Assembly (NCBI GenBank): GCA_964019425.1
Contig: OZ025789.1
Span: 930,001-994,000 of the forward strand
From: Flectonema sp. DT1601
Lineage: Eukaryota
Length of the DNA: 64,000 nt
Reading direction: 5' to 3'
In this document: piece by piece, positions 1,360 through 55,710 of the stretch
Layout of the letters: each line of letters starts with the position of its first letter
Numbering within the stretch: the stretch's first letter is position 1
The notes under the pieces: model-generated
What the model saw: the letters and a program-made list of their open reading frames with translations, nothing else
Told to the model about the DNA's origin: nothing
Databases searched by the model: none
Made by a program: the position numbers and the translations under genes

Positions 1360-1715
1360 TTACTCTTTAAGTAAATTAATGATGTGGTTCATATTGTCTT
1401 CTGAATGAGAATTGAACAGAATGATTTCCCAAAGTGAACACATCAACCGAATCCCAACGAGGTGTCTAATTCCTGTTATAAGAATTATAACTTTTGAAAT
1501 AAATCACAAACAGACTGCAAAACATCAGTGACTAGCTTAAGTACCAACACAAACTGGGTACACAAAATAGTACTTCTGAAAGATAGATGAAGAGAGAGGA
1601 ATAAAACAAATAAGTTGTATAAGAACAACATCACCAACAGAACTACAATAACAGCCCCAGTGAGACATACTATTCACTAGGGAGTCTGTTCAGCAGATAT
1701 GTCAGAAAAACAGAA

Positions 1716-3188
1716 TCACTTACTCCAATACTTCGAGTGATTCATTAAGAACCACCTATCCCAATAAGAACCAATCTCTTGGTACAAAAGGAACTCTAGA
1801 CTAGTGTCGTACATAGACATCGCATCCTTAGTATTGAGAATCTCATCATGTCTGAAACATATTACCTTTCTATCATGGTTACCTATTCCAGCAACTACAA
1901 ACCCATTGTCCATATCACCGAATTCTAACATTCCTAACCTCGACACGTTAGGATATCCGAACTGAGTGTCACCAGGAGCTATCCAATAATCTAACATGTT
2001 ACCAAACCTGTCATACTTCCCACCTCGGAATAAACGACCACTCATCCAACTAATCCAAAGTTCACCAGTCAGTGTAGTAGTAGCAACAGGAAGGAATCCC
2101 GTATTATCCCACGATGCTACAGTAGCTCTCCTGGGAACAGGATTGTCAGCTCTCGGGAGTCCATCGATGTCGAACTCCCTCATCCAAATAGTGGGAAGTG
2201 GGAACTTGCTGCTCCAGGTTTTCGCGTCGTAAGGATCCTCCTTCCAAATAATGAAGAACTGTCCCCCGTACATCGACACACATGCTGGACGCCAGAAGTA
2301 TCCAGGCTCCATACCTTCTGTTACTTGGAAGTAGGGACGACCTTCTATCTGTGCTCCGTTGTTTTCTAAGAGGATGCCCCATATTCCAAATCCATTCGTG
2401 TTCTGCCAGACAACAATGACCCTGCCATTAGTCAGAAAACATACATCAGGCCACGTCTGGGTTTCCGACATTGGCTCCGTTATGTTCGCAATATCTACGC
2501 CATCATTGTAAAAATGAGCGAGTTCTATACCTCCTTGTCTATCATCTTGGCGCCAAGTTGCCATTGCAATAGTGATGTGATGATGAGTACTGTCGCAATC
2601 AATACCGAAATGATACCAAATATGATACTGTGGAACTCTATCTTCCTGGGGATACGAAGGACAAATATTACTTACAACAATTTGCAAATTAATCCTCTGC
2701 CTCAAACTAGTGTACTGAACACGAGTACTTACCTGATACACAGCATTCATGATACCCGCAGTGTACGACATGCATGTCCGAAGATGTGCCCGCACCAACT
2801 TGGTAGAACAATATATGCCAGGAGGCCAAACAGCACTCTCAAACCTGTTGAGGTACCCCTGTGCAAGCAAGTCGTGAGTTCCGTATTTCGGAGACCTCAG
2901 CGTGTTAATCCAAGTCACAATGTATCCCACAGGCGTCCGACCCAACTGAGGGCTGAAACCACTCCACTGATTAACAACGAACCACCAAGGACTGAATCGT
3001 GGTCTTGGATAGTACCTCGATATCATTGCAGGACTGTAGTTGGTCAGGTCTTCATTCCTTGCCAGTTCTATACTTTCTGACACATTCATCCTGAAAGTAG
3101 TGTAACCTTTCATTATAGTGTAATTACCATCAGTCGTGCTATCTCCTGGAGTAGTAGTCAGTGCTAACAATAACGCGATGTACAACAT
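1716..3188 (-). CDS. Secreted beta-propeller-like protein, cassette copy 1
   Basis: Intronless ORF, first ATG at 3188 (MLYIALLLALTTTPG, signal-peptide-like) after pyrimidine-rich acceptor tttattgtttctcag. Repeated blade-like motifs WPDVCFLTNGRVIVVW, WRPACVSMYGGQFFIIW, FLPVATTTLTGELWISW. No TM segment seen. Confidence 0.75.
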   Translation of the reverse strand: MLYIALLLALTTTPGDSTTDGNYTIMKGYTTFRMNVSESIELARNEDLTNYSPAMISRYYPRPRFSPWWFVVNQWSGFSPQLGRTPVGYIVTWINTLRSPKYGTHDLLAQGYLNRFESAVWPPGIYCSTKLVRAHLRTCMSYTAGIMNAVYQVSTRVQYTSLRQRINLQIVVSNICPSYPQEDRVPQYHIWYHFGIDCDSTHHHITIAMATWRQDDRQGGIELAHFYNDGVDIANITEPMSETQTWPDVCFLTNGRVIVVWQNTNGFGIWGILLENNGAQIEGRPYFQVTEGMEPGYFWRPACVSMYGGQFFIIWKEDPYDAKTWSSKFPLPTIWMREFDIDGLPRADNPVPRRATVASWDNTGFLPVATTTLTGELWISWMSGRLFRGGKYDRFGNMLDYWIAPGDTQFGYPNVSRLGMLEFGDMDNGFVVAGIGNHDRKVICFRHDEILNTKDAMSMYDTSLEFLLYQEIGSYWDRWFLMNHSKYWSK

Positions 3189-3542
3189 CTTATTGTGCGG
3201 ATCAATAATAATCCTGAGAAACAATAAAGAATTGAAGCAGGATGGAAGAACACTTATTGTTCAACTGCAGAGTACGCATCCACGTACTGTCAGCAATCGG
3301 CAAAGTAGTAAATGGGTGCAAGACGACAAGCTTCCTCACACGAGGCCGCCTACACAAACTGGTGTCGTGGTGATGCACAAAAAGAATAGATAGCAATCGG
3401 ATTAAGGTAAACAACAATCACGATGTTTGCCGGGGTAGATGAAAAAAGGAAGAAATCAAAAAAAAAAGAAAATGTGTAAGCAAAATAGAGGAAAACTGTA
3501 ACAGAAACAAAAACAACAAACGGTGTTGCCCGCATGAGCAAT

Positions 3543-5135
3543 TCACAACTCCACCTCATCCTCGTTGTCCTCCTGCACACCACCAGAGACATGACTACCA
3601 GAGAGGATGCTACACATGGGAGTTAGAAGCATGTCTGAACTCGCACGCATAGTTGCCGGAATCGTTGTCGGTGAATCCGACAACTCAGCAGCGCTCATCA
3701 TTAATATGTAGTTCGGTTCCTCATCTGAAGCAGCGAACTCAGAACGCAACACTCGCCACAGCCACGGACGCGGACGCAGCAGCAATCCACACATAACACA
3801 TCCAAAAAGATCCGCGACATGAACCGCCCACTCCACCTTGCGGAAGCGGTCCAACGCCGAGGAATTGTCTGCAACGAGCAACACCACGGGAAACGATGAA
3901 ACGTGAAGCAACAGCAAAACACCCCATCCCAGAAAGAATCCTCTCGCTTCCGAATGAGCTACTAATTGTCGCCACACATTACGACAGAAGTAACAGGCAA
4001 TCGGAAGTGAGAGACATCCCACAGCGATAGCAGGAGGTGTTTGATACTCGCTGGCAGTCAAATCATCACTTCGCATTATGTACATCCAAATGAAGAGCAC
4101 CAGGAGAACAACTCCACACCCACTAATTAGTTTGCAGTCCACAGATGACATCCCTCCAAACGATTCTCCGAGGACTCCAAACCCAGTCGAGAAGTTGCAC
4201 ACCAACTGCATCAGCATCACCCGAGCAACCAACCCCGCCCCGTAGGCATTCGCTTTCCCGTGTCCTGTATTCGCAATGCTGACGTATGCGAATAGCTTCT
4301 GAACCCACTCAACAAGGAAAAGCATCAAAACCACGAGGAACCATTTCACAACTGCCGGGGTCACTCCTCGTTGCCTTCGATCCCAAACTGCGAACGCCAC
4401 GAAGACGAACACCAAAATGACAAACAGCGGGACTGCGATGATGTTCAGTTCGAGGATTCCCTGCTCCTCCAGACTGAACTCCCTCCGCCACCATCCTCCT
4501 TTGTTTATGAGGTGTAAGTGGATCGTCACTGCCTCGTCGTTGGTACCGTTGCAGTTCGTCACCGTGAAGTACCACCTCCGAGGTGCTACTCGCTGGTGGC
4601 AGGGGAACTTGAAGGGATTGGATGCGAACCCTTCACACGGAGACACCGTGCAATTCGGACGCATTGGTCTGGTTAGTGAGTAGTATTGACCGAGTGAAGT
4701 AGGGTTGTCTTCCTCACCGCGTATAAGTCCGTGGTAGGTGTGATCTATTAATCCCATGGGATACGTTACAATTAAGGGACTGTCCGGCTCAAGCTTAATT
4801 ACATTTCTGATAATCAGCTGTCGATAGTACGTAATCATTCTACACAAGTGGAATGGATTTTTAATGAATGGGAGCGATGCTTGAACGGAACTCCAACTTT
4901 CAACTTCATCCGAATAGACAACGAAAGTGTAGTTCTCAACCTTCCAGCTGTCTTCAGAGTCTACCCACATCTCACCCCTCGGGGCCAATCCTTCTTCTCC
5001 GAGTGCGCCATCAACAGTATCGAATAAGAAGGTTCCGAGAATATTCCTCATCCCACTCACTTCGATATCATATCGCCGACCTTCAGAAATGATTGGAATC
5101 CACGTCAACCACAATACCCATACTAAGGTGTGCAT
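3543..5135 (-). CDS. GPR180/TMEM145-like (GOST-type) 7TM protein, cassette copy 1
   Basis: 530-aa ORF; signal peptide; luminal domain ending PRRWYFTVTNC...IHLHLINKGGWWRREFSLEEQGI, the motif typical of GPR180/TMEM145; then about 7 hydrophobic helices. Acceptor ttccttcag abuts the ATG. Confidence 0.75.
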   Translation of the reverse strand: MHTLVWVLWLTWIPIISEGRRYDIEVSGMRNILGTFLFDTVDGALGEEGLAPRGEMWVDSEDSWKVENYTFVVYSDEVESWSSVQASLPFIKNPFHLCRMITYYRQLIIRNVIKLEPDSPLIVTYPMGLIDHTYHGLIRGEEDNPTSLGQYYSLTRPMRPNCTVSPCEGFASNPFKFPCHQRVAPRRWYFTVTNCNGTNDEAVTIHLHLINKGGWWRREFSLEEQGILELNIIAVPLFVILVFVFVAFAVWDRRQRGVTPAVVKWFLVVLMLFLVEWVQKLFAYVSIANTGHGKANAYGAGLVARVMLMQLVCNFSTGFGVLGESFGGMSSVDCKLISGCGVVLLVLFIWMYIMRSDDLTASEYQTPPAIAVGCLSLPIACYFCRNVWRQLVAHSEARGFFLGWGVLLLLHVSSFPVVLLVADNSSALDRFRKVEWAVHVADLFGCVMCGLLLRPRPWLWRVLRSEFAASDEEPNYILMMSAAELSDSPTTIPATMRASSDMLLTPMCSILSGSHVSGGVQEDNEDEVEL

Positions 5136-5706
5136 CTGAAGGAAGTTTGAAAATAATGTAAATCAACAACACAAATGAATTATTCACATTATTGAATTGA
5201 TATCCGTACTTCACATCTGCGTATTGTAAACGACAATGAAGTCAAAGGAGAGTCTAACTGTTCGGTAATCTAAGACTGTTAAAGGAGAGAGAGATACTCA
5301 TGTCTCATATCTCACTCGTATTGAGGTTTTCATTATTTGTTGTGAAGTACCTGAGTATGGAACATTAATACATTGAGTTCTGTGGTGTACAAACTAATTA
5401 CTACTTTCCTAATCAACGATCATTATTGTGAAGAACTCTGAGATGAATAATAATCACAAGTAACAACAACAAAGAAAGTGTTAACAAAAGAATAGCAATA
5501 AGTACTTGTAATTACCTTCAAATACCACCACAAACTGGGCATAAGAAAGTACTACTTCGGTACTGCAGCAAAGAGAGGAATCATTTGAACAAAAAGGAAG
5601 AAGAACAACTGCGAGATACCAATCATAAAGTATCACAATAACAACCCAGTGAGACATACTATTCACTAGGGAGTCTGTTTAGCAGAAATATCAAAAAAAA
5701 ACAGAA

Positions 5707-7179
5707 TCAATTACTCCAATACTTCGAGTGATTCATTAAGAACCACCTATCCCAATAAGAACCAATCTCTTGGTACAAAAGGAACTCTAAACTAGTGTCG
5801 TACATAGACATTGCATCCTTAGTATTGAGAATCTCATCATGTCTGAAACATATTACTTTTCTATCATGGTTACCTATTCCAGCAACTACAAACCCATTGT
5901 CCATATCACCGAATTCTAACATTCCTAACCTCGACACGTTAGGATATCCGAACTGAGTGTCACCAGGAGCTATCCAATAATCTAACATGTTACCAAACCT
6001 GTCATACTTCCCACCTCGGAATAAACGACCACTCATCCAACTAATCCAAAGTTCACCAGTCAGTGTAGTAGTAGCAACAGGAAGGAATCCAGTATTATCC
6101 CACGATGCTACAGTAGCTCTCCTGGGAACAGGATTGTCAGCTCTCGGGAGTCCATCGATGTCGAACTCCCTCATCCAAATAGTGGGAAGTGGGAACTTGC
6201 TGCTCCAGGTTTTCGCGTCGTAAGGATCCTCCTTCCAAATAACGAAGAACTGTCCCCCGTACATCGACACACATGCTGGACGCCAGAAGTATCCAGGCTC
6301 CATACCTTCTGTTACTTGGAAGTAGGGGCGACCTTCTATTTCTTCTCCGAAGTTTTCCAAAAGGATGCCCCATATTCCGTACCCATTGGTGTTCTGCCAG
6401 ATAACAATGACCCTGCCATTAGTCAGAAAACATACATCAGGCCACGTCTGGGTTTCTGACATCGGCTCCGTTATATTTGCAATAGCAAACCCGTTATTGA
6501 AAAAGTGAGCAAGTTCTATACCTCCTTGTCCGTCGTCACTTCTCCAAGTTGCCATTGCAATAGTGATGTGATGACGAGCACTGTCGCAATCAATACCAAA
6601 GTGCAGCGAAATAGAAAACTGCGGGATCTTCTCTTCCCCGGGATACTTAGGACAAATATTACTTACAACAATTTGCAAATTAATCCTCTGCCTCAAGCTG
6701 GTGTACTGAACACGAGTGCCCACTTGATAAACAGCATTCATGATACCCGCAGTGTACGACATGCATGTCCGAAGATGTGCCCGCACTAACTTGGTAGAAC
6801 AATAGATGCCAGGAGGCCAAACAGCACTCTCAAACCTGTTGAGGTACCCCTGAGCAAGCAAGTCATGAGTTCCGTATTTCGGAGACCTCAGTGTGTTAAT
6901 CCAAGTCACAATGTATCCCACAGGCGTCCGACCCAACTGAGGGCTGAAACCACTCCACTGATTGACAACGAACCACCAAGGACTGAATCGTGGTCTTGGA
7001 TAGTACCTCGATATCATTGCAGGACTGTAGTTGGTCAGGTCTTCATTCCTTGCCAGTTCTATACTTTCTGACACATTCATCCTGAAAGTAGTGTAACCTT
7101 TCATTATAGTGTAATTACCATCAGTCGTGCTATCTCCTGGAGTAGTAGTCAGTGCTAACAATAACGCGATGTACAACAT
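5707..7179 (-). CDS. Secreted beta-propeller-like protein, cassette copy 2
   Basis: Paralogue of 1716-3188 at offset +3991; same signal peptide and repeats. Confidence 0.75.
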   Translation of the reverse strand: MLYIALLLALTTTPGDSTTDGNYTIMKGYTTFRMNVSESIELARNEDLTNYSPAMISRYYPRPRFSPWWFVVNQWSGFSPQLGRTPVGYIVTWINTLRSPKYGTHDLLAQGYLNRFESAVWPPGIYCSTKLVRAHLRTCMSYTAGIMNAVYQVGTRVQYTSLRQRINLQIVVSNICPKYPGEEKIPQFSISLHFGIDCDSARHHITIAMATWRSDDGQGGIELAHFFNNGFAIANITEPMSETQTWPDVCFLTNGRVIVIWQNTNGYGIWGILLENFGEEIEGRPYFQVTEGMEPGYFWRPACVSMYGGQFFVIWKEDPYDAKTWSSKFPLPTIWMREFDIDGLPRADNPVPRRATVASWDNTGFLPVATTTLTGELWISWMSGRLFRGGKYDRFGNMLDYWIAPGDTQFGYPNVSRLGMLEFGDMDNGFVVAGIGNHDRKVICFRHDEILNTKDAMSMYDTSLEFLLYQEIGSYWDRWFLMNHSKYWSN

Positions 7180-7537
7180 CTTATTGTACGGATCAATAAT
7201 AATCCTGAGAAACAATAAAGAATTGAAGCAGGATGGAAGAACACTTTATTGTTCGACTGCAGAGTACGCATCCACGTACTTTCAGCAATTGGCAAAATAG
7301 TAAATGAGTGCAAAACGACAAGCTTCCTCACACGAGGCCGCCTACACAAACTGGTGTCGTGGTGATGCACAAAAAGAATAGATAGCAATCGGATTAAGGT
7401 AAACAACAATCACGATGTTTGCCAGGGTAGATGAAAAAAGGAAGAAATCAAAAAAAAAAGGAAATGTGTAAGCAAAATAGAGGAAAACTATAACAGAAAC
7501 AAAAATAACAACAAATGGTGTTGCCCGCATGAGCAAT

Positions 7538-9127
7538 TCACAACTCCACTTCATCCTCGTTGTCCTCCTGCACACCACCAGAGACATGACTGCCAGAGAG
7601 GATGCTACACATGGGAGTCAGAAGCATGTCGGAACTCGCACGCATAGTTGCCGGAATCGTTGTCGGTGAATCCGACAACTCAGCAGCGCTCATCATTAAT
7701 ATGTAGTTCGGTTCCTCATCTGAAGCAGCGAACTCAGAACGCAACACTCGCCACAGCCACGGACGCGGACGCAGCAGCAATCCGCACATAACACATCCAA
7801 AAAGATCCGCAACATGAACCGCCCACTCCACCTTGCGGAAGCGGTCCAACGCCGAGGAATTGTCTGCAACGAGCAACACCACGGGAAACGATGAAACGTG
7901 AAGCAACAGCAAAACACCCCATCCCAGAAAGAATCCTCTCGCTTCCGAATGAGCTACTAATTGTCGCCACACATTACGACAGAAGTAACAGGCAATCGGA
8001 AATGAGAGACATCCCACAGCGATAGCAGGAGGTGTTTGATACTCGCTGGCAGTCAAATCATCACTTCGCAATATGTACATCCAAATGAAGAGCACCAGGA
8101 GAACAACTCCACACCCACTAATTAGTTTGCAGTCCACAGATGACATCCCTCCAAACGATTCTCCGAGGACTCCAAACCCAGTCGAGAAGTTGCACACCAA
8201 CTGCATCAGCATCACCCGAGCAACTAACCCCGCCCCGTAGGCATTCGCTTTCCCGTGTCCCGTATTCGCAATGCTGACGTATGCGAATAGCTTCTGAACC
8301 CACTCAACAAGGAAAAGCATCAAAATCACGAGGAACCATTTCACAACTGCCGGGGTCACTCCTCGTTGCCTTCGATCCCAAACTGCGAACGCCACGAAGA
8401 CGAACACCAAAATGACAAACAGCGGGACTGCGATGATGTTCAGTTCGAGGATTCCCTGCTCCTCCAGACTGAACTCCCTCTGCCACCATCCTCCTTTGTT
8501 TATGAGGTGTAAGTGGATCGTCACTGCCTCGTCGTTGGTACCATTGCAGTTCGTCACTGTGAAGTACCACTTCCGAGGTGCTAATCGCTGGTGGCAGGGG
8601 AACTTGAAGGGATTGGATGCGAACCCTTCACACGGAGACACCGTGCAATTCGGACGCATTGGTCTGGTTAGTGAGTAGTACTTACCCAGGGAAGTGGGGT
8701 TGTGATTCATCATTGTGAATCCGTGGTATGTCCAATCTGCGCCATCTAATGGATAAGTTACAAAAAGAGGACTACTCGGATCGCCCTTATCAATCCCTCT
8801 GATGATTAACTGTCGGAAGTACGTAACCAATCTACACGAGTGGAATGGATTTTCAATGGAATCAACAAAAGCTTGTGTTTGAGGCCAACTATAAGGCTCA
8901 TCTGAATAGACAACGAAAGTGTAGTTCTCAACCTTCCAGCTGTCTTCAGAGTCTACCCACATCTCACCCCTCGGGGCCAATCCTCCTTCTCCGAGTGCGC
9001 CATCAACAGTATCGAATAAGAAGGTTCCGAGAATATTCCTCATCCCACTCACTTCGATATCATATCGCCGACCTTCAGAAATGATTGGAATCCACGTCAC
9101 CCACAATACCCATATTAAGGTGTGCAT
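7538..9127 (-). CDS. GPR180/TMEM145-like 7TM protein, cassette copy 2
   Basis: 529-aa paralogue of 3543-5135; acceptor ctctccctcag abuts the ATG. Confidence 0.75.
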   Translation of the reverse strand: MHTLIWVLWVTWIPIISEGRRYDIEVSGMRNILGTFLFDTVDGALGEGGLAPRGEMWVDSEDSWKVENYTFVVYSDEPYSWPQTQAFVDSIENPFHSCRLVTYFRQLIIRGIDKGDPSSPLFVTYPLDGADWTYHGFTMMNHNPTSLGKYYSLTRPMRPNCTVSPCEGFASNPFKFPCHQRLAPRKWYFTVTNCNGTNDEAVTIHLHLINKGGWWQREFSLEEQGILELNIIAVPLFVILVFVFVAFAVWDRRQRGVTPAVVKWFLVILMLFLVEWVQKLFAYVSIANTGHGKANAYGAGLVARVMLMQLVCNFSTGFGVLGESFGGMSSVDCKLISGCGVVLLVLFIWMYILRSDDLTASEYQTPPAIAVGCLSFPIACYFCRNVWRQLVAHSEARGFFLGWGVLLLLHVSSFPVVLLVADNSSALDRFRKVEWAVHVADLFGCVMCGLLLRPRPWLWRVLRSEFAASDEEPNYILMMSAAELSDSPTTIPATMRASSDMLLTPMCSILSGSHVSGGVQEDNEDEVEL

Positions 9128-9905
9128 CTGAGGGAGAGTAATTTAGAAACACCAGAAATAAACACCCTTGAGGTTGTTAATGTTTGATACTTAGAAACAG
9201 GACAAGTAGGACGCAGTACTTTAAAATAAATTACTGCAAAACCGCAATAGTAGACCACATGATTCAAAGTACGTCCAATACCTGATCAGCAGTAAATAAT
9301 GACCGCAGTACCCTTTTTATTAATACCTGTTGAGAATAGTAATTACAAATAGAAAAAAAACCAATTAAATCAAAAACAACAAATTAAGAGTTGTGACGAG
9401 GTAATCGTCTCAAGAGTATAAATGAAGGAAATCGATGCAAAGCTATATAACACCACATCGAATATACAAAAAAAAAAGAAAAGGGGGGACCGTCTTCTCA
9501 TCCCGAAGAAGCTCTACTGAGAATCATAATTTAATACGGTGAGATGAGAGAATACATATTTATTGATTAAGGACACACACACTCCTCTCATTAGAGTGTA
9601 ACTTAATTCGAAATGTTGATGCACTGCTGATATCCATATGCTATATTTGTACCGAGGAAAAAAAGGGGGAACTAGAATTCCTCATCGGTACAAGGTAGGA
9701 TATTGCAACTACAAAAAATATGATAAAGAAGAAAAGAAAACTACTACTAAAAAGAAAAAAAGAATCGGCAAACTTCACTTTTTTTACTTACTCACTCACA
9801 CTTTTATTTTGCTTGTGTGCGCAACCGGTAGAAAATCCTAATAAAGGAATAGGTTAGTTACGCTGTCACAATTCTCTTTCTACCGAACAATGGGTTTTGT
9901 AGGTA

Positions 9906-14321: not shown

Positions 14322-14955
14322 TTATACTTAGCGACGAGAAGAGTGCATTTGTTGAGGATTGTTGAATGCCTGGAGGGGAAAGGTAAAAATAAATAATTAA
14401 AATAAAACAAAAACATAACTACCGACGTCAAAGATACGAGTGAAACTTCTTGTTTCTCGGTAACATAGAAACATTTCACTGAATGAAAATACGAAACAAA
14501 AGAGGACCCGTGCAGTGGTACCTGCTGATCTTCAGCTCACCAACTGCAACCGACGCGAAGATATCACGTATCAGGTGAGAGGTTGCTTTTTGATTTTTAA
14601 AAAAAAATTAAAAAAAAAAATCAAATTGCTTTTTCGAATTGTAACAATAATATATATGAGGAACAGATAGACAAAAAGAAACAAAACCGGAAAAAAAAAA
14701 AGAATTTTTTTTTTATTATTATTATTATGATTTATCTGACAAAAAAAAAAAAAAAAAAAAAAATAAGAAAATCCCCCCTCTCGTGAAATTTTAATAAAAG
14801 AAGCAATTCTCCGCTCTAGTAAAAGAGAGGCCAATTTTGGCTTTTTTTTTTTTTTTGACTACAATTTAGTGTCGATCAAAGTGGAATATTGCACATCTTC
14901 CTAAGAAGAAGAAGACGTAAAGAAACTCAGTCATTAAGTGTTTGAAGGGAAAGTG

Positions 14956-17079
14956 CTATTTCATGTCTGGTGCTGTCTGCGGCTGCGTCTGCGGCTGCGT
15001 CTGCGGCTGCGTCTGCGGCTGCGTCTGCGGCTGCGTCTGCGGCTGCGTCTGCGGCTGCGTCTGCGGCTGCGTCTGCGGCTGCGTCTGCGGCTGCGTCTGC
15101 GGCTGCGTCTGCGGCTGCGTCTGCGTCTGCGGCTGCGGCTGCGTCTGCGGCTGCGGCTGCGTCTGCGGCTGCGTCTGCGGCTGCGGCTGCGGCTGCGGCT
15201 GCGGCTGCGGCTGCGGCTGCGGCTGCGGCTGCGGCTGCGGCTGCGTCTGCGTCTGCGGCTGCGGTTGCAGCTGCGTCTTGTAGGAAGAGCTCGTGTACGG
15301 ATCTTCCTCAAACTGTTCCTTTCTAAAAACAAAGAAATACGACACAGCAGCTATAATAATAATAGCACAAACACAACCCAACACAATACCAGCAATTGTT
15401 CCAGCGCTGATGTCATCGTCCTCAGGGATGATGGGTGCTGGAGTAGCAGAACAAACCCCACCAGGACCATAGACGTATCCAGGTAAGCACTCCAATGCCC
15501 TGCAAGTATTAGAGCCCTTGAATCCAACAGTAATTAACACACCTGACTTATAAGCGCATCCGTATCCAGAAGCTTCTACTGCACCCACCAGGTACGTCGC
15601 CGATCTGTTGATGTACAACCTACCAGGACCATCAATAATTCTGCTCTCAAGATTTGCAAAGTTTGGATTAAATGCAGTTGCGACAGTCGCTGTAGCGAGT
15701 ACCGCTACTTGGACATTGTAGCTGTTTGTTTGTTTTTATGTACTAATATGTGAGTGTGTGTACACTTGCAATGCACTTCAGATATTGTAAAGGAAGTATT
15801 CAATTAAACTATTACAACAATCATGAGACGGTACTAAATTGGAACACACATGTTGCATTAACCCCCCCGGAATATCTGTTCTAAATCCGATATAAAAACA
15901 ATACGAAAACAGTACATACCTAGTAGTAGTCCCACTCACTGTTTCACAAAATTGAAATATTCTCACCTCACTAAAAAGGTTCCCAACGAGCGCTAAGAAC
16001 TCCGCCTTGAATGCCGCGGCTGTGCCATCTGTGACGTCGCAAATTACATCAAGAAATACCAACGACAGAATATATACTTGTTCTGTCAATCCTGTTATTG
16101 TTATAATGTTTAATGACTTGGTAATAACACATTCTATTAATAAACAACACTGACACACACCATTAACTATCTGTCCCTCCTCAGTGTTGAAGCAGCTGCT
16201 AAAAGTTGACGAAGCAGTCTGAGACACGGTTGTACCAACGTAGTTTTTATATATTGAGCCGGTCGTGCAACGACATGTTGCAGACTGATCACTGCGTAGG
16301 CAAGTAGCTTTTCGGTCTCCGTGTCTTCTGCAGTTGTCGTTGACGTTGCAAATTCGGAGTGTTGATGCATCTTGTATGCCCTGAGTACAAGCACCAATTG
16401 AATTAAAACCAAAACCAGGACTACAAATAATATCAGTACACATCATCAATGGACCTGATTTGAGAACTTCACGAAATCGAGCATTCGCAGTCGAAGGACA
16501 CCACAGTGAACTCGACCTCAAAAATGACAATCTGGTATAGCCAACCATCCCTCCAGCAAGGGGTGGTATTTCATTACTATTTATAGCATCACTGACAGCA
16601 GTTGGAAACAACAACAAACTGGTGTTAAAAATTCCTTTTAAAGTCACATTTAACACCATCGATGAATAGATACCTCCACTAATACAAGAATGTCTTATTG
16701 ATTTGATTTGTGGGCTGAGTTGGGACTTAGAAAACGACCAATACGAAGCCGTAACATCACCAATACCTTCACAACGTATGTTATTTGTGTAGAGAGACAT
16801 TACTAGCGATAGAGGTTTTAGTGTGTCAAAGTTCGTGGTATCCATCCGTGGGTAGCACGTCTTTATACTTTGTAAACCGTTAGAAGAGACATAGAAATCA
16901 AAATTTTCGCTGCATGAACACCATGACCTCTCTCCTTGGATTTTGCAAGATGCTCTTGAATCTCCAAAAATTTGACAATCTTCATTTATAAAACAGGTTG
17001 AGATATCACTCGGTGTGTAATCCGCAGTCGATAATAAAACTATATATAATATCCCACACAAAACATATTTATATTTCAT
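14956..17079 (-). CDS. Cys-rich type I membrane protein with PQ/TQ-repeat cytoplasmic tail; introns 16092-16160 and 15722-15919
   Basis: Signal peptide MKYKYVLCGILYIVLLS; two related Cys modules (C..N.DC...GD..A.C...C.C). Splicing joins the ORFs 15778-17133 and 14956-15618 in frame (TTTS|YNVQV). TM segment IAGIVLGCVCAIIIIAAVSYFFVF. Confidence 0.8.
14975..15278. repeat. GC-rich coding minisatellite: 12-bp (CAGACGCAGCCG) and 6-bp (CAGCCG) units encoding (QTQP)n/(QP)n
   Basis: Directly visible as ctgcggctgcgt repeats on the + strand. Confidence 0.95.
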
Positions 17080-17280: not shown

Positions 17281-20131
17281 TCACACTTTATAAAGACAAG
17301 TTCTAAGTGAGTATCCTCTCTGAGTTAATAATTTTCTCATTTTCGCGATGCAATCAGATTTCGTGAATAACATAAAACAGACAACGTAGTCAACGTCCTC
17401 GTGATCTCTGTACACCGACATCGTCATTTTTGAATTATGAGCATCAAGCTGTGTTGGTTGCCAGATGTGATTAGAAAAATGACCAGGATAGTCCCACAAA
17501 GCACCTATCTTATCACCGCATGGGTTTAAGACTTGCCAACAACGTCCAGTTGGTTTTCGACTGCATATCGACATGGGTGCTGCGAAATCAAACTCATTGT
17601 GAGATAGTCGATGGTATAAATAATCAAATGAATCAGACATAGCGATGTGTTCTAACAGCGCACCCTCGTTGTTTAAATCATAGATGGTGCAGTTTAGGAA
17701 TTTATGTGTCTTTTTACTGTTAGAGTTCGAAACGGGTACAATGAACCCTGATCTGCATTGGATGGTAGCGGACAGTACTGGTCCACAGTAAACATCTAGA
17801 GTTCTGCATGTCTTGTGTTCAATCATTGTAATTTGTTCTCTTGTTGCTGCGATGTCTGGTAAGATGTCATCTATACCTGTTGGTTGTATTATTTTATATA
17901 AAAAAGAAATTGGCTTTTATCTTAAATAACTATACAGAAAAACAGTAATATAACAACTGTGATGTGTTTTTTTGTTTGTGTCACGAAACCGACTTAAAAC
18001 TGATAAAGCTAAAGGAGGTTTACGTGTGCTGCCCAACATTCTTTTAATACTTGTTAAATGCAAAAAAGAACCATACTGTTCGTTTTCAAAAATAGAAGCA
18101 AACACATACCAATATCAGCTTTCTTACCTTCTTGTTTAGCAACAGTAACGAGAACAGATAACTCTTCAGCTGGTCTCATAGGATCTATCGATACTTTTCC
18201 AGTTTCATCAGTCGTGGTGCAAAAACATCGAATTAAGATGCGAAGAAATGATTTGAAATCAATGCATGATTCAGTTCTAACTCCAAGGTTTTGATCATTC
18301 TTACCAGACCCTGATGCACCTGATAATGGAGGTAACACCTGTTGTTGCATTACTTCTTGAAAAAATGGTTCATCACTCACTTGAGTACCATCAGCCATGT
18401 ATAGTTTTTCAACAATTCCATAATCAGTTTTAAACTTCCTCCATTTATCAAGAACTAAGAATCGAGTGTTTCTTCGATCTTTGTAACAAACTAACGATGA
18501 GAATAGTTTTTGTAATTTTGTGATGAGAGTGTCGTCGATGTACCAAACTGGACAGGTATCCCTAACAGTAAATAACTGACCAGGAACGGTCTCAGAATAT
18601 CTAACTCGATCATTACTAACATCAACTAAGAAGGTTGAGTACATTCCAATTTCTACGGTCCATAAATGAGTTTGAGTATCGTATCTGATTACAACATTTA
18701 TTTGTGAAGGTTCGACTGATGGAAGAGTCAGAGCCACTCTTTTCGGTTTCACAGTATGAGCTCGTAACGCAAACGGTGGTATTATCTTGTTTATGTCTGA
18801 GAATCTAACAAGAACGTCTCTCTTGGTACAGAAATTAGATCCATCGATAGTGACGTCGATGTCACCAGAGCCTGGAGATATGTATGGACGACAAGCAGCA
18901 TGTTCACTGTTATTTCTTAGTATCGGAACACCTTTTGGAACCCAGTCACAGTCTGATGATAATTCCCTTGAAAATATTTTTTGATAAAACGGAGAAAAAG
19001 ATCTAAACAAAGACTCAACTCTACTGGTAATAGTCGGTGACTCAACCATGTCAGTATGGACCACCATGGAAACCCTTAACATAACATCAATAAATGTCTG
19101 TTTATCAAGAAGAATATCCTGATAAGTCATCTCTCCTAAGCCTCCAGATTGAGATCCTCTCCGAGAAATATTAGCATAGGTACATTCTTGCATTTCAAGA
19201 GGTGTGTTTGGATTCACAATTATTTTTCCAAAACACGCTACTTGAAGAATTTTTGATATTTGAACAGAATTAATCAATTTTGGGTAAAGACCGAATTCTT
19301 TACAAAAATCAATGAACTCATCGACTTCGACATTCGCATCCAATACTTTTAAAACATCATAACTAAGTGTTTTATTGCCATGTTGATCCAATGATTTATA
19401 TCGTTGGAATATTCGTTCAATGGGAGCATCGTAGATGCAGAGTAGTCGATCAATGTCGAGGGATTGTAAAAGGTCATCACCAGGTTGACATCCATCATTT
19501 TGATTTCTTCTAATCGACTCGTCAACCCATTTGCTTATGTGTGTTTCAAATAATTCTTGTAGAGCATGTCGGTGTTTACCATCCAGATGCGGATGTTTTT
19601 GAAATGCTGTTTTTTTTTTTTTGTTGTTGAGTTTTTTTTAGTTTTTTTAAAATATTGGATATAATAACAAAAAAAAAAAAACCTACCAATATGAACCAAT
19701 ACTTTAGTAAAGCGAACGATGTCTAAGTTTCCTTCAGAATCAACAGACCAATCTACCAAAGTCATGTATCGGGATTGCTCTTTATCAGTTGTTATTAGCT
19801 TGCATTGTTTCGCCCAGTGTTGAAATAATTTTCTATCCATTTTCTTTTTTTCTAAATAATCACCATGATCCAAAGCATGTGAGAATAACACCATTATAAC
19901 CGAAAGCATTCCTTCCCTACCATCAGATAAGATTAGCTCAATGCTAGTTTTCTCCATGTCACCTTCTTTGTAAAGGTTATTTATCATTTCACTAATTAAT
20001 TTATTTGCGACTGAAGCAGCTGATTGCCTTCTAGCACCTCCTTCCTTTCGTACCCATGAAGCTGGAGATCCCATTCTTCGAGTACTGCTATTACGTCGCA
20101 CTGGGATACTCGCAGAGCTCATGCGACGCAT
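17281..20131 (-). CDS. Large multidomain protein with EF-hand/p25alpha-like helical modules and an IPT/TIG-like domain; introns 19607-19686 and 17877-18109
   Basis: Two GT-AG introns join three ORFs in frame (VHI|AFQKH; DI|GIDDILP). PYISPGSGDIDVTIDGSNF resembles IPT/TIG. Domain calls are tentative. Confidence 0.7.
17901..18066. repeat. Dispersed ~165-bp repeat, copy A (inside intron 17877-18109)
   Basis: Near-identical to 47354-47525 (gaaattggcttt...tcacgaaaccgacttaaaactga...aaaggaggtttacgtg...aatacttgttaaatgc). Confidence 0.9.
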
Positions 20132-29027: not shown

Positions 29028-30737
29028 CTATGCTGGAGTGAGAGGTGCCTCAGCTGCTGGAGATTGTGGTGCTTCTTGAGAGGCCACAGCCTTCGTAGGA
29101 GTAGTAGAATCAATGTCCATACTGCCTTCCTTCTCTTTAAGAGCAGGGTTAACCCATATTTTATTTCCTTTGTGAAGCACTGAGGCAGCTAGAGGTGCAT
29201 TTACTTTTTTCGCAAGCGCAGCTTCCTGAGCAACCTTTTGATCTTCTGTTAGTAATGAAGGGTTCTGCCACACCATGTTACCAGTGTGAGCAGGAGCTGC
29301 CTTCTTCCCACTCTTGTGTCCACCCTTTACCCCTGCACCTCTTCCTCTACCCGGAGCAACACCAGGTGCAGTGTACCTGTTGGTTGGTTGGTTGGTTATA
29401 ATTAGTTGAAGTTGTTTTACTCTTTACGATTCTCTGAATAATATAAAAGAAAAAGACCGATATAGTGATACAAGAATGTTACTTGCAAGAGCTGGAAGTG
29501 GAGCGAGCAGGTGAAGGTCTCAACCAACTGAGGTCATCGGACGGGCAGGAGGACTCCAGAATGGAAGTAGACGATGGCCCAAACCAACGGACTGAAGGGC
29601 AGGGCTTGACTCTGCTCCAAGGTAAGGTGACAACTTTAGGAGCGTGAGTGGATCCAGGTAAGGATGTTTGGAGACTCTGGAAGCCTGGCACTGGTGCAGG
29701 CAAAATTTGAGGCAGACGCCATCATAATTATATTGGAAATGCAAATAAAAGCAAACGCAAGATAATACATACACCATGTTACCACTTGACCACTGCTTCC
29801 AAGGTGGGATTGATGCTGCTGCAGTTGTTGGTGCGGTCACACCCTTACCTCCTTTGCCACCTTTTCCTGCCAACCACCAAGGGGCTGGTGGCTCTTCAGC
29901 AGTAGCTGGTTTCGGTGTGTTGTAGTGTGAGATGTTTGGTATGTCAGAATCTTCTATTTTATTTAATGTAATTGTGAACTTCGTTTGACTGTCGTCAGTG
30001 AGTGCTGGTTGAGTGAGAAGCGATCTGTCAACAGCTGGGACTACGTTCAGATGAACAGCACCTTCTGGAAGATCAAAACCGGCACCTTTACTATCTGTTA
30101 TAGTGAATCTGGTTGAGGCTGAAGAATCTTGTTTTTTAGTTTTTTTTTCATCCTCTTTGCGACGTCTGCGACGGTCGCGGTCACCTCTACGTTCTCTGTC
30201 ACGATCTCTGTCTTTATCGCGGTCATCTTTTCTTTCCCGACGGCGTTCTTCACGGTCTCGGTCTCGTTTTGTATTATCGCGAGTTGCCCATTGTAATGCG
30301 CTTCTGAAGCTTTTTAAATTTGGTTGTTCTCGGACTTCTCCAGCCAGGTCGTCTGCGGAGACGCCTCCCGAGCGATCGAAGTCTCTTGGTCTGTCTACTT
30401 CCATATCGTCATCAGTTGAGGCTTCTTTCCTCTTTGAGAAGGCGGAGTGAGTTCGAGCTGGATTCCTATCCGCAAGCATCTGCCATAGCCAATCAACAAA
30501 ACGTGGAGCTTCGTCAAATAAAAACACTTTTAGATCTTCTATGACTTGTGGCTTTTGTTTTGCATTACACACAATAACTTTAATATACTCTGGTAGGATG
30601 GACGAGATTGTTTCTACAGATCCAGCATGTGAATATTCATCTTGTAATTTTCTCTTTATCTCTTCCTGAATTTGATTAGCCAGTTCTGAATCAGCCTGCA
30701 ATATCAACGGTGGTCCATCTTCCGTAGGCATAGCCAT
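29028..30737 (-). CDS. PWI-domain RNA-processing protein with R/D-rich and RG/KG-rich regions; intron 29377-29772
   Basis: N-terminal LPEYIKVIVCNAKQKPQVIEDLKVFLFDEAPRFVDWLW resembles the Nab2/ZC3H14/RBM26-type PWI domain. Splicing gives SSGNMV|YTAPGVAPGRGRG, in frame with ORF 29028-29276. Confidence 0.8.
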
Positions 30738-30904
30738 ATATTATAATTATAAATAGGTTTGTCAATTACCCAATTCCTGTGTGCTGGTTGCAGCGCTTGA
30801 GTCCCAGAGTCGAGAAGTCCCAGTGGTCGGCAATTCAATGCGTGTAGCAAAAAAAAAAAAAAAACTTTAAATTTTTGACAACCGTTTTTTTCTTATTTTC
30901 TTCT

Positions 30905-31390
30905 GGCCCGGGCTTTTTTTTTTTTTTTTTTTTTTAAACAGTTGTCACTGGTAATTGGTTTTTTTTTTTTTTTTTTTTAATATCGCCTCGGGTCTTATCA
31001 TATCATCGCCCCACCCCCCAGCCAGCAAAAAAATTTAGGAAAGCCTTGACACATGTTTTGATTTTTTTTTGGCCCGGGCTTTTTTTTTTTTTTTTTTTTA
31101 AACAAGTGTCAATGGTTGGCTTTTTTTTTTTTTTTTTTTTTAATAGCGCCTCGGGTCTTCGCATGTCAGCCTCTCCCACCCCCCAACACCGATTGCCTCA
31201 AAACAAATTGAGGAACTAAAACAAATCAGCAAAGCCTCTGCTGTTGTTTTCACTCGACAGTCTCCGACTAAATAATGCTAAATTTCTTTTGGCCCGGGTT
31301 TTTTTTTTTTTTTTTTTTTTAGCATTTGCCAATACGATTGGCTTTTTTTTTTTTTTTTTTTTTTTAAATGCCTCGGGTCTTTTGCATGTC
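30905..31390. repeat. Three degenerate tandem units: GGCCCGGG-poly(T)-spacer-TTGG-poly(T)-GCCTCGGGTCTT
   Basis: Units start at 30905, 31071 and 31291 with the same motif order. Confidence 0.9.
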
Positions 31391-31893
31391 ATCAAGCCAT
31401 CAAAATCCTACAGCTATTTCCAAACGTCAGTGAAAAAAAACAAAAAAAAAACAAGAAAAAATTTTGTTACTTTATCACGTCTTGTATACCACCACTCTTC
31501 GATTAGGAACAGAAAAGGGAATAAAAGGAAAGCGTCCTCAACATCCATCCACGATAGCAGAGAGGGACTTCTCAACAAGGGTGCGGAAGATTAGGAGGCA
31601 TCCGCTGGAAAATAAAGGGGGGGAGGTACTTAGTGCTATATTACAACAATAAATCACATTGCGATCAAGAACTCAGGACCATCTTTTACTTGCTGTCAAA
31701 AAACAAAAAGCAACAAAACTTATTCAGGAAAAAAAAAAAAGAAAATACTATTTAACGATCGGAATCCAAATCAGAATTTTCTAAATAAAAATTTCACATC
31801 ACAGTCGGTTAGGTCCTTCTGTTTTAATTAATTAATACGCCTCTCACTAGCATTGTCTTGAGTAGAAACAAATCCAGATCTACTCACAAAATG

Positions 31894-46238: not shown

Positions 46239-47353
46239 TGCTGTTGAAACAAATGGTTTGAGGAAGTTATCAATTTCAGTATAAATTTAACACCAGAGTG
46301 TAATGGTCATCCTCTCTCATCAACATCATGTGTAAGGCTGGGTTAATACATGGAGTTAAGGAACAGCAATGAAAAAATAAACAATAGAAATAGAATACTA
46401 CATAATCTAATTAGAAAAAAAAGCTACAATTATTTTGATAAGAATCTATGAGGCGCTTGCAGTAGGGGTACGTTGTGTGTATTCTAATGAAAAAAAAAAA
46501 GGAAAGCAACAAAAAAAAAGAAGAAGAAAAAAAGTCCCCTACTTTCTGTGATACAATTCGCAGCTTAAACCAATTTTTTTTTTTTTTGCCTTACGGCGGT
46601 TTTTTTTTGAAGGGCAAAACTTTGACAATGTAGAAACAGTTACAACTTTTAGGTATTAAAAACAAAATTAATATCAAAAGTACTTGACTGAAAAAAATAT
46701 ATTTGAGGGAAGAACAAAAAAAAAAAAAAGCACATCCGAAATAAAATCACAATGTGAGTTTTTTTTTTTTTCTTTGCATTCCAAAGCAGCTGTCATCACA
46801 TATGTATGAGAAGACGCTATGAAATACCCTTTTTTAACGACATATCCCGAAACTATAATCTACAGATAGAGACTGCCACAAGAATATTATGGTGTTGTTA
46901 TTGTTGTTGTTGTTTTTTTTCTTTCCTGTTGTTTTTTTCATTAAGAGAATACGAAAAAAAAAGAAGAACAGAGGGAGAAATAAAAAGAAAAAAATAATCT
47001 TCCCTCTTAAGACTAGACAAGTTAGTGAGTGAATCCAACAGACCACCACCGAATATCGGTTTGGTTGACTCTCAAATAGAGATCTTCGAGTCATCCCCAA
47101 TAACTGCAGTAAGAGTTTTAAACGCAATAATCCTCAAAAAGATAGAGAGTTTCTACTATGAAGGAACAAAAAAAAAGCCATTCCAATGCAAGGAACAGAA
47201 AGGAATTAGAATAAGCGACTTTGAGCCTTCGAAAAAAAGGAGTTGAGGCTAAAGTTGAAATAAGGAGTCTTTTCAATGTTCCGCACTTTCTTATTTTATG
47301 TTTTAACATAAACAGCATAAGTGCTAATAAAAAAGAAGTTTTGGAAGAAGAAA

Positions 47354-47525
47354 AAAAAGAAATTGGCTTTATCTTAAAAACTATACAGAAAAATAGTAAT
47401 ATAACAACTGTGATGTTTTTTTGTTTGTGTCACGAAACCGACTTAAAACTGACAAAAGCTAAAGGAGGTTTACGTGCTGCCAACATTCTTTTTTCGTTCT
47501 TACAATACTTGTTAAATGCAAAAAA
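47354..47525. repeat. Dispersed ~165-bp repeat, copy B (intergenic)
   Basis: Matches 17901-18066 with a few substitutions and indels. Confidence 0.9.
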
Positions 47526-48024
47526 AAAAAAAGAGGGAAAAAATGGTTTAAGGTTTTTGTTTTATGAGTGTATACACAATAAATTCCAAAAAAAAAAAAA
47601 AAAAAGTTTAATTTTCAAAATGGAAAAAAATCATTATCACTCCAACAGCACCATAATTTTTTTGTTTTTGTTTTTTTTACATATTATTTTTTTTTTTTTT
47701 TGCTTCTGATAATTATTTTCACTTACTTCGGACAAAAGATTAAAAGGGAACGTGGACTAGAGTTGTCTACTTTGTTGGACAAGAGAAGGAAGGGGTAGGT
47801 GCAAATAACTACCTACAAGTAACAACAAATTTAACAAGATCACAAAGGCATGGCAAATAATATGTGAAACATTAAAGCATCACGGTGAGACTGTTCGAAG
47901 CCTTGGCATCAACAACGATTGAACAACGACAAATAAAAAAGAGAAAAAAAAAAAGAAAAGAAAACAAATCTAAGGACGGAGAGAGAAAAGGGAAATTATA
48001 ATGACACATAACTTAGTACAACTA

Positions 48025-54279: not shown

Positions 54280-55710
54280 TTAGAAAGGAGTACCCTTCAG
54301 GTATCTCGAGTAGAATGTGAAAGCAGCGATTGGCTGGAACTGAGGAACCATGTGTCCAGCAAGACGGATAGTGATGAAAGAGAAATCCTTGTCTCCCTTA
54401 GTTGGAGTGTAGGTGGTGGCGTATCCGAGTGGAATACCTCCGGCATCACCAAACCATGGGTGCCATGCCTTCTTCTCAGTGGCAACTCCAGCGGTAACCA
54501 TGGAAGTGGTCCACTCTTCGTTACCCTTGTAAGGAACACAAGCATCAGAGTCACCGTTGTAAATCAAAACTCTGATCTTTCCGATCAAGTGTGGGTACAG
54601 AGTAACGGAAGCTGGTCCACTGGTAGAGTAGCTGAATCCAGAAACACCTGGCTTTCCCAAGTGAAGAGCCTTCTGGACGTCGTCTCTCTGGAAGTAAGCA
54701 GCCATGGCAGCCATACCACCACATGACCAGTCGTATCCTCCTCCCAAGGCCTTCAACTCAGCGGCTGCTGCAGCAGGTCTGTGAAGGTTGTCTCTCAAGT
54801 AGTTTCTAAGGAAGGTTTGACTCTTACCAGATCTCATAACCCATTCTTCAGTCTGAGGACAGTTGTCATAGATATCGTAGATGTTGTAAGGACCAACTTC
54901 ATTGTTCATTTGGTCGAGAGCTTGACGGCAGCCAGCGGATCCAGTGTTTGGGAAGTTGCATACTTTGTAGATCTGCTCGTAAAGCTTCTTTGATACGAGT
55001 CCCTTACCGTAGAACATGTCGACGTCGTTCTGCTCGGAGTTTGGTCCGTTGCAGTTCACGTTTCTCGCGTCACCTCCCCAACAACCGTTTCCAACAGCAA
55101 TTCCCTTCAAGTTTGGAAGAACGTTGTGGGTGGTGATGTAGTAAGCGATGTTTGGAATGTACTGTCCAGCGTATGACTCACCAGTAAGGTAGAGATCATT
55201 GTTCTTGTACTCAGGGAACTCACTGAAGAACTGCTGAAGGGTCTTGGCGTAAGCCTCAGCCTGGTTGGTGTCATTCCAGCTGCAGGTGTGCTGAGGCTGG
55301 TTGTTGATCAAACAGTAAGAGAATCCAAGTGGATCATCAGAACCAGCAGGTGACTCAAGGTAAAGCATACTGCTAACACGGTTCCATGCCTGGCTGTTGA
55401 CGTACTGAGAAGTGGTGTTCAACTGAAAGTATCCCATCTCAGCGTAGGCTCCAAATAAAGAGGATCCACCAGGACCTCCCTGATGCCAAGTTGAGATTGG
55501 GTCAGTCGCTGGGTTGTTCTGTGACTCATGGAACTGGTAGTGAACCTTTAGCTCATCGTATCCAGCAGCGAATGGTCCCTTCACAGTGAGGTATCCACTG
55601 TACACCTTGAATGGTGCTTTTGGGAATCCAGGAAGCTGGTCGACGAGATCCGCAGCAGGGGCGGCCATCGTGCATCCCAGGGATGCCAAAAGCGCAGCAG
55701 CGTAACGCAT
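54280..55710 (-). CDS. Serine carboxypeptidase (S10), copy 1
   Basis: Signal peptide; YSGYL, QGGPGGSS, ESPAG, TGESYAG (catalytic Ser), YNGDSD, AGHMVP (catalytic His). Confidence 0.97.
   Translation of the reverse strand: MRYAAALLASLGCTMAAPAADLVDQLPGFPKAPFKVYSGYLTVKGPFAAGYDELKVHYQFHESQNNPATDPISTWHQGGPGGSSLFGAYAEMGYFQLNTTSQYVNSQAWNRVSSMLYLESPAGSDDPLGFSYCLINNQPQHTCSWNDTNQAEAYAKTLQQFFSEFPEYKNNDLYLTGESYAGQYIPNIAYYITTHNVLPNLKGIAVGNGCWGGDARNVNCNGPNSEQNDVDMFYGKGLVSKKLYEQIYKVCNFPNTGSAGCRQALDQMNNEVGPYNIYDIYDNCPQTEEWVMRSGKSQTFLRNYLRDNLHRPAAAAAELKALGGGYDWSCGGMAAMAAYFQRDDVQKALHLGKPGVSGFSYSTSGPASVTLYPHLIGKIRVLIYNGDSDACVPYKGNEEWTTSMVTAGVATEKKAWHPWFGDAGGIPLGYATTYTPTKGDKDFSFITIRLAGHMVPQFQPIAAFTFYSRYLKGTPF

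Follow-up and report, generated by a model that had tools for sequence, protein, structure and literature searches.

Organization of the locus

The 64,000-nucleotide (nt) stretch of Flectonema sp. DT1601 DNA analyzed here (contig OZ025789.1, positions 930,001 to 994,000 of the forward strand; called the window below and numbered from its first letter) carries a tandemly duplicated cassette of two genes, one for a predicted seven-transmembrane (7TM) protein of the GOST type and the other for a predicted secreted beta-propeller protein. Self-BLAST and pairwise alignment revealed one 3.6-kb direct repeat (1539-5143 versus 5520-9135, 93.4% identical); the two tandem copies of a linked gene pair described in a first-pass annotation, made from the sequence alone, are thus indeed present. 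In order of transcription each unit consists of the GOST gene, a non-coding spacer (354 nt in unit A) and the propeller gene, and all these open reading frames (ORFs) lie on the minus strand. The parts of the repeat are as follows.

1539..5143: repeat unit A (GOST-A, spacer, propeller-A and the start of the 3' flank)
1716..3188, minus strand: propeller-A gene, 490 amino acids (aa) from ATG, with a signal-peptide-like start, a predicted seven-bladed beta-propeller (about residues 65-450) and an aromatic C-terminal helix
2337..2739, minus strand: divergence island of propeller-A (codons about 150-284, mainly predicted blades 3-4); 62 of 403 columns differ
2613..2657, minus strand: the most changed propeller-A loop, residues 178-192, predicted blade 2-3 linker; 9 of 15 residues differ
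3189..3542: non-coding spacer A, between GOST-A and propeller-A, homogenised
3543..5135, minus strand: GOST-A gene, 530 aa, with a signal-peptide-like start, a GOLD-like luminal domain, 7 predicted transmembrane helices (222-452) and a C-terminal tail
4686..4911, minus strand: divergence island of GOST-A (residues about 75-150, luminal helices and a lineage-specific insertion); 79 of 228 columns differ
4912..5135, minus strand: GOST-A 5' segment, homogenised, between the island and non-homologous upstream DNA; 3 of 224 positions differ
5136..5706: junction spacer, 571 nt
5520..9135: repeat unit B
5707..7179, minus strand: propeller-B gene, 490 aa
6328..6730, minus strand: divergence island of propeller-B, the counterpart of 2337-2739 at offset 3991
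7180..7537: spacer B, homogenised
7538..9127, minus strand: GOST-B gene, 529 aa
8681..8903, minus strand: divergence island of GOST-B

Ahead of the propeller ATG, spacer A contains a polypyrimidine tract and AG, likely trans-splice signals. The junction spacer has a pyrimidine tract and AG of its own; on its propeller-B side it can be aligned with the 3' flank of propeller-A if indels are allowed, and on its GOST-A side no alignment to the DNA upstream of GOST-B was obtained. A single fused GOST-propeller gene was ruled out by the stop codon, the spacer and the separate signal-like start.

One island of divergence in each gene

Differences between the two units are concentrated in one patch per gene. 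The GOST copies differ by 33 substitutions in 72 paired codons and one codon indel within residues 78-150, and at 9 of 457 positions outside this patch (Fisher p=2e-24). The propeller copies differ at 22 of 104 residues between positions 178 and 281, and at 3 of 386 elsewhere (p=3e-13). In the spacer we counted 11 mismatches and 4 gap columns in 358 (15 differing columns, about 4%). Both blocks of difference and the greater conservation of the spacer had been noted in the first-pass annotation, and all three held on recounting. As the limits of the patches were picked after seeing the data, a scan-wide shuffle test was added: the best 220-nt window contained 77 differences, while 2000 shuffles gave at most 29, and with the GOST patch taken out, the best 310-nt window contained 54 against a maximum of 26 (2000 shuffles). 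A two-state hidden Markov model gave the islands at 2337-2739 and 4686-4911, with 46 differences in 2795 columns of background; under the strictest setting the former splits in two around a 68-nt near-identical tract.

Silent divergence (dS) in the GOST patch is 0.79 versus 0.038 in the rest of the gene (21-fold), and in the propeller patch (residues 178-281) 0.48 versus 0.068 (7-fold). Because it reaches 7-21 times the background there, the patches should be considered old rather than fast-mutating. Replacement divergence (dN) amounts to 0.43 and 0.135, giving dN/dS of 0.54 for the GOST patch and 0.28 for the propeller patch, values that come from one pair of sequences per gene; a ratio below 1 may also be seen for balanced types of great age. 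As dS exceeds dN, neither hypermutation nor recent positive selection was accepted as the source of the patches, and the term 'hypervariable', used previously, is not appropriate: two copies show divergence only, and in both patches silent sites are more diverged than replacement sites.

Changes with negative BLOSUM62 scores make up 17 of 33 in the GOST patch versus 1 of 9 outside, and 9 of 22 in the propeller patch versus 0 of 3 outside. The G+C content (GC) of third codon positions in the GOST patch is lower than outside (0.42 and 0.40 versus 0.57; p=0.022 and 0.008); we give this shift little weight, as it is not significant at four-fold sites (p=0.43 and 0.12), and the propeller shift is likewise not significant (p=0.054 and 0.76). 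Outside the patch, four-fold-site GC of the GOST genes is 0.50 versus 0.17-0.34 in 19 single-copy ORFs, possibly through GC-biased conversion.

A probable old duplication under continuing gene conversion

Outside the repeat, the 3' flanks of the propeller genes diverge steeply and with many indels (33 columns differ in the first block of 100 and 21 in the second), the regions upstream of the GOST genes do not align (score 38 versus a shuffle maximum of 54), and no neighboring gene is repeated beside the tandem. Recent duplication was rejected, the flanks being too diverged. Within the units, conversion reaches up to the islands, as seen in the 224-nt GOST 5' segment and in the spacer. An old duplication, repeatedly overwritten inside by conversion, would explain the patches, the homogenised interior and the diverged flanks together, and we consider such a history, with conversion still continuing, very probable. 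Gene conversion has been reported as pervasive in trypanosome arrays (PMC1855330).

The window contains a control. Two serine carboxypeptidase S10 genes in tandem (54280-55710 and 56514-57944, minus strand) differ at 9 scattered positions over 1431 nt without forming an island, and their flanks diverge within about 70 nt. This is the plain outcome of conversion.

The GOST protein

The Pfam family GPR180-TMEM145_TM (PF10192) matches both GOST copies (38.8 and 37 bits; cut-off 23.7), the structural model has seven long helices at 222-452, and its best four Foldseek matches are all TMEM87A (E values 2e-6 to 1e-4). By profile and by model, the 7TM protein is thus a GOST protein of the GPR180/TMEM145 group, which agrees with the comparison to GOST proteins and the extracellular or luminal position of the patch in the first-pass annotation. 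For the luminal part, the top Atlas clusters carry TMEM145_N or PTM1-like_N (0.92 and 0.90), these families occurring on 12-39% of cluster members, and the last luminal strands align with a TMEM145_N-bearing protein (98.7% probability). A luminal GOLD beta-sandwich is likely on these grounds, but Pfam TMEM145_N itself gave no match to this part, and its model has pLDDT below 50. Comparison with three distant homologues places the patch in the helical part of the luminal domain and in a lineage-specific insertion. A role as signaling receptor is not established for this protein, and most characterized GOST proteins are described as acting in trafficking (PMC9711517, PMC11605061, PMC12716839).

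The sole close relative found is Flectonema neradi transcript P0003, with 65% identity over 65% of the query; the matches to F. neradi mark the source as most likely a diplonemid, a marine single-celled eukaryote. The annotated ORF of P0003 (isoform i9) starts only within the luminal domain and lacks the 5' portion that would include the patch; other isoforms of P0003 might show patch variants. Two homologue searches, which reach only close relatives, gave 2 matches each and nothing past the window's own cluster and the Flectonema one. In a metagenome scan, 3 distant GPR180/TMEM145 genes were recovered among 91 candidate stretches, on contigs of 1.4-2.1 kb, too short for gene context.

The propeller protein

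The model of the second protein has a beta-propeller fold (predicted local distance difference test, pLDDT, 70.8; predicted template modeling score 0.75), with seven blades by strand count. No 19-residue hydropathy peak exceeds 1.6, i.e. there is no transmembrane helix, and the start resembles a signal peptide as judged by eye; in these respects the protein appears secreted, as had been proposed. Its structure matches are all generic propellers (CylK, lectins, glycosidases, WD40). The best is CylK (7ron; Z 32.7, root-mean-square deviation 3.2, 332 aligned residues, 11% identity), and seven-bladed lectins (Photorhabdus PHL/PLL) are among the top Foldseek matches; identities of fold matches are 9-13%. 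The propeller had no match among PDB sequences, and profile searches of these listed neither CylK nor the lectins. A lectin or CylK function deduced from fold alone was rejected, as the fold gives no function.

The propeller has no Pfam or NCBIfam family. A search of representative sequences (E up to 0.001) gave 124 matches: the protein itself, seven family members (422-505 aa, 25-32% identity) and 116 repeat proteins of an unnamed bacterial-type family, which match mainly blades 3-5 (E down to 2e-10). Three of the seven best non-self matches come from F. neradi. In a tree built by a quick method from 10 family rows and 16 repeat proteins chosen by length, the propeller family lies on one side of a branch with support 100. 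The closest Atlas clusters are bacterial (0.92, low recognition), and bacterial origin is a lead only. A viral scan confirmed 0 of 2 stretches.

The patch corresponds to predicted blades 3-4. A separate trio of near-identical propeller paralogs (P0011, P0129 and P0130) shows 12 differences, of which 7 fall where this patch lies in the alignment (p=0.012), or 7 of 9 when the last three differences are left out (p=0.001). Two further paralogs, P0007 and P0008, are 38% identical and probably lie on one contig. At the end of the propeller (window about 1719-1830, minus strand), a helix (456-471) and an aromatic-rich tail are predicted; with low confidence, these might touch a membrane or a 7TM cavity.

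Probable selection against conversion

Several results suggest that at least one island was protected from conversion and did not merely escape it. Neutral escape would be expected first in the spacer and in the 224-nt edge segment, yet both are homogenised. The share of nonsynonymous changes is higher in the patch than outside in both genes (p=0.039 for GOST and p=0.003 for the propeller). Silent differences in the propeller island are, on average, closer to amino-acid changes than chance would predict (mean 3.0 versus 4.5 codons, p=0.006). None of 720 runs of a neutral toy model with relaxed patches ended with the two islands and a clean body, and other neutral toy models gave the full pattern in 0 of 216 runs and, with a clean edge, in 0 of 780, on grids that are small and with edge behavior partly built in. 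Silent and replacement divergence both peak locally at this locus while the rest is homogenised, as in other duplicates held apart by selection against conversion. Thus, we consider it likely that such selection acted in at least one island; it probably protects the propeller island, and support is weaker for the GOST island. As to the dN/dS and gene-conversion checks proposed in the first-pass annotation, dN/dS is below 1 in both patches, and the pattern of differences points to conversion, with selection probable for the propeller patch.

A possible matched pair

The explanation that we favor, by a narrow margin, would involve coupling between the two proteins. Gene conversion would homogenise the cassette, with selection shielding one patch per gene; each propeller would be bound, escorted or anchored by the luminal domain of the GOST protein from the same cassette, and the cell would export two propeller variants with a dedicated handler apiece. 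The islands would then persist since a hybrid cassette, with the receptor patch of A and the propeller patch of B, works badly, which is the least sure step. Such coupling would account for the presence of an island in each of the two genes of a unit. By analogy, the products could form matched cargo/anchor pairs in the manner of TMEM145-stereocilin or Wntless (WLS)-Wnt, and this reading, which we put forward tentatively, seems quite possible though short of probable. The GOLD domain of TMEM145 is reported to bind secreted stereocilin and promote its secretion (PMC12789471), while Wnt contacts the WLS GOLD domain, whose loops are proposed cargo-recognition sites (PMC9711517). Of the matched-pair interpretation offered originally, the cargo or chaperone variant hence has good precedent, while mutual contact of the patches is something that we infer.

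The following observations weigh against this interpretation, some of them against selection as such. Both patches have dN/dS below 1, and the excess of replacements in patch versus rest could reflect weaker constraint. Clustering of silent and replacement differences fails in the GOST island (p=0.99), where 46 codons already differ and the test has little power. Up to 37 of 40 runs of the neutral model ended with a GOST island and no other, and the uniform version of the model gives two inner islands on a low background in 17 of 780. Changed propeller residues lie mostly in loops (18 of 22), which vary in any protein, and seem to be spread over both faces instead of one surface (about 12 top, 9 bottom or side and 1 core, assigned by hand from the strand order of the model and general propeller topology). 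Residues 1-223 of the GOST model have pLDDT below 50, so that the patch surface cannot be placed. Adjacency of the two genes says little, given that 20 of the 20 ATG ORFs of at least 200 aa in 14000-64000 are on the minus strand. Such one-strand gene order is expected of polycistronic euglenozoan genomes. Finally, F. neradi has a GOST homologue of 65% identity, but the closest propeller found there is only 25-27% identical, which suggests a poor fit to an old obligate pair unless the propeller transcript is missing. Complex prediction for propeller-A (60-475) with the GOST-A luminal part (19-232), made in two runs without alignments and with an uncertain partner fold, scored 0.00 and speaks neither for nor against binding.

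Alternative explanations

The two proteins could also have been kept different independently. Neighbors would have been duplicated together, and each pair then maintained by its own outside partners, such as prey or host surfaces and glycans for the propeller and other cargo, viruses or toxins for the GOST protein, with no mutual binding. We regard this division of labor as nearly as likely as the matched pair. It is served by the same evidence of selection as the matched pair, and changes on both propeller faces are compatible with it, as is the presence of seven-bladed lectins among the top structural matches, although these are generic (9-11% identity). Variation of the same blades in the paralog trio may point to a family-wide binding surface, and the GOST searches gave no GOST cluster beyond those of the window and Flectonema; however, the tool used missed all the 25%-identical propeller paralogs, and so cannot show a trio without a GOST neighbor. 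On the other hand, two separate long-lasting selective reasons would be needed in one 3.6-kb unit enclosing exactly two genes.

Neutral escape appears unlikely. Here loose loops would have gathered mismatches, blocked conversion and drifted, so that one island (most plausibly that of GOST, near the repeat edge) or both would be non-adaptive. Such escape has been proposed for trypanosome arrays (PMC1855330), and it agrees with the low dN/dS, with changes located mostly in loops and in the lineage-specific GOST insertion, and with the ease with which the toy model makes a GOST island and now and then two. Nevertheless, the indel-bearing spacer and the edge segment should escape first, yet both are homogenised. 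Region-specific neutral runs, within the limits of their small grid and partly built-in edge behavior, never yielded the two islands together with a clean body, replacements in the propeller island tend to have silent differences close by, and the same propeller region recurs in the trio.

By analogy with recognition systems, the propeller could mark the identity of the cell that releases or displays it, with the GOST protein as its receptor on other cells, in mating or in telling kin apart. Two specificities would then be present in the tandem, and these may once have been alleles that became fixed next to each other. This we find improbable. The arrangement resembles the Tetrahymena mat locus with its tandem gene pairs of type-specific and conserved segments (PMC3608545), Plasmodium GPR180 is reported at the plasma membrane and acts in gametogenesis (PMC9045217), some diplonemids aggregate (PMC5845003), and D. 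papillatum has meiosis genes, although sex has never been observed in it according to the same source (PMC10161547). However, there are only two types, both complete and carried by a single genome in which no switching mechanism is apparent, dN/dS is below 1, and GOST proteins with a characterized role are mostly trafficking factors. The kin, mating or allorecognition function raised in the first-pass annotation has accordingly gained no supporting result. Equally improbable is its most specific form, a two-gene diplonemid specificity cassette of a GOST protein with its own propeller, perhaps of bacterial descent, whose matched lock-and-key patches, preserved in the duplicates despite gene conversion, would serve as a cell-identity or mating code.

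Head-to-tail joining of two haplotypes of one cassette by the assembly, which would make the differences allelic and might be suspected from the presence of two copies only with a background difference of about 2%, is very improbable, because no neighboring gene is repeated and the compact junction has its own spacer with splice-like signals, and because a join should repeat the flanks at allelic identity whereas these are strongly diverged with indels on the 3' side and unalignable upstream (another species, D. papillatum, also appears haploid; PMC10161547); the tandem described in the first-pass annotation looks real.

Implications

The locus offers a natural two-by-two swap, since both the GOST luminal domain and its candidate client come in two variants that are nearly identical apart from a single patch. 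This is of interest as clients are known for few GOST proteins (WLS-Wnt, TMEM145-stereocilin) and remain open for most, according to available accounts (PMC9711517, PMC11605061). In this diplonemid family of predicted secreted propellers, blades 3-4 stand out as the likely working surface. If the matched-pair reading is true, receptor-client pairs could be sought in protist genomes through mirrored conversion-resistant islands; otherwise the locus is still a clear case of selection against gene conversion. An identity code, if true, would mean that a GOST protein has a ligand that is genetically linked to it and diversifies along with it, and that a group in which sex has not been observed possesses a recognition locus.

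Other features of the window

The cassette genes are intronless; a PX-PH-kinase ORF at 61757-62872 (minus strand) ends early in its kinase domain and likely continues past an intron. A tandem array with a 12-nt period lies at about 14900-15350, and a dispersed 180-nt repeat (88% identical) at 17900-18070 and 47353-47528. Three degenerate copies of a poly-T-bounded unit, spaced by 160-220 nt, occur at about 30870-31400, directly upstream of the ORF at 29520-30737.

Comparison with known systems

Among the literature matches listed, nothing concerned this locus, a diplonemid GOST protein or the propeller family; in the P. papillatum proteome text the words propeller, GPR180, TMEM145 and lectin are all absent. 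CylK and the Photorhabdus PHL/PLL lectins have a predicted fold in common with the window propeller and no sequence match.

The pairs TMEM145-stereocilin (PMC12789471) and WLS-Wnt (PMC9711517, PMC11605061) have the same GOST architecture, the locus sharing PF10192 with TMEM145, and in both the GOLD domain is described as binding, escorting and perhaps anchoring a secreted protein. Their partners were demonstrated by experiment and are not propellers of the window's family, whereas binding in the window we infer. Gene linkage or duplicated specificity is not mentioned in the passages of these accounts considered here.

Tandem gene pairs in which each gene has a conserved part and a type-specific outward-facing part are likewise reported for Tetrahymena MTA/MTB (PMC3608545). 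There, six incomplete germline pairs lie head to head, both products are membrane proteins, identity is about 42% in large segments, and one pair is chosen by DNA rearrangement. The window, in contrast, has two complete head-to-tail pairs with small islands in unrelated protein families. Brassica SRK/SCR is a linked pair with variable extracellular parts. Dictyostelium TgrB1/TgrC1 is described as such a pair too, and the window resembles both in its tight linkage (354-nt spacer) and one island per gene, the receptor and ligand roles being assumed. A dN/dS above 1, looked for as a mark of recognition pairs, was not observed in its variable parts (0.54 and 0.28). TgrB1/TgrC1 and SRK/SCR are described as multi-allelic in populations, with binding and rejection phenotypes shown.

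Closest to the selection pattern are the Leptodactylus ATP1A1 R/S duplicates (bioRxiv 10.1101/2020.08.04.234435), reported as tandem copies likewise homogenised except near selected amino-acid differences, with silent differences clustered near replacements as in the window's propeller island. The frog case comprises one gene, 12 sites and a known toxin; the window comprises two neighboring genes with a block island each and no known agent. Tandem arrays of trypanosomatids (PMC1855330) similarly present euglenozoan tandem copies with gene conversion and partial divergence, but the passages of that report considered here describe no two-gene unit with an island in each gene. The ingredients of the locus, GOST-client binding and selection against conversion, are therefore known, and what is new is their mirrored occurrence in two neighboring genes.

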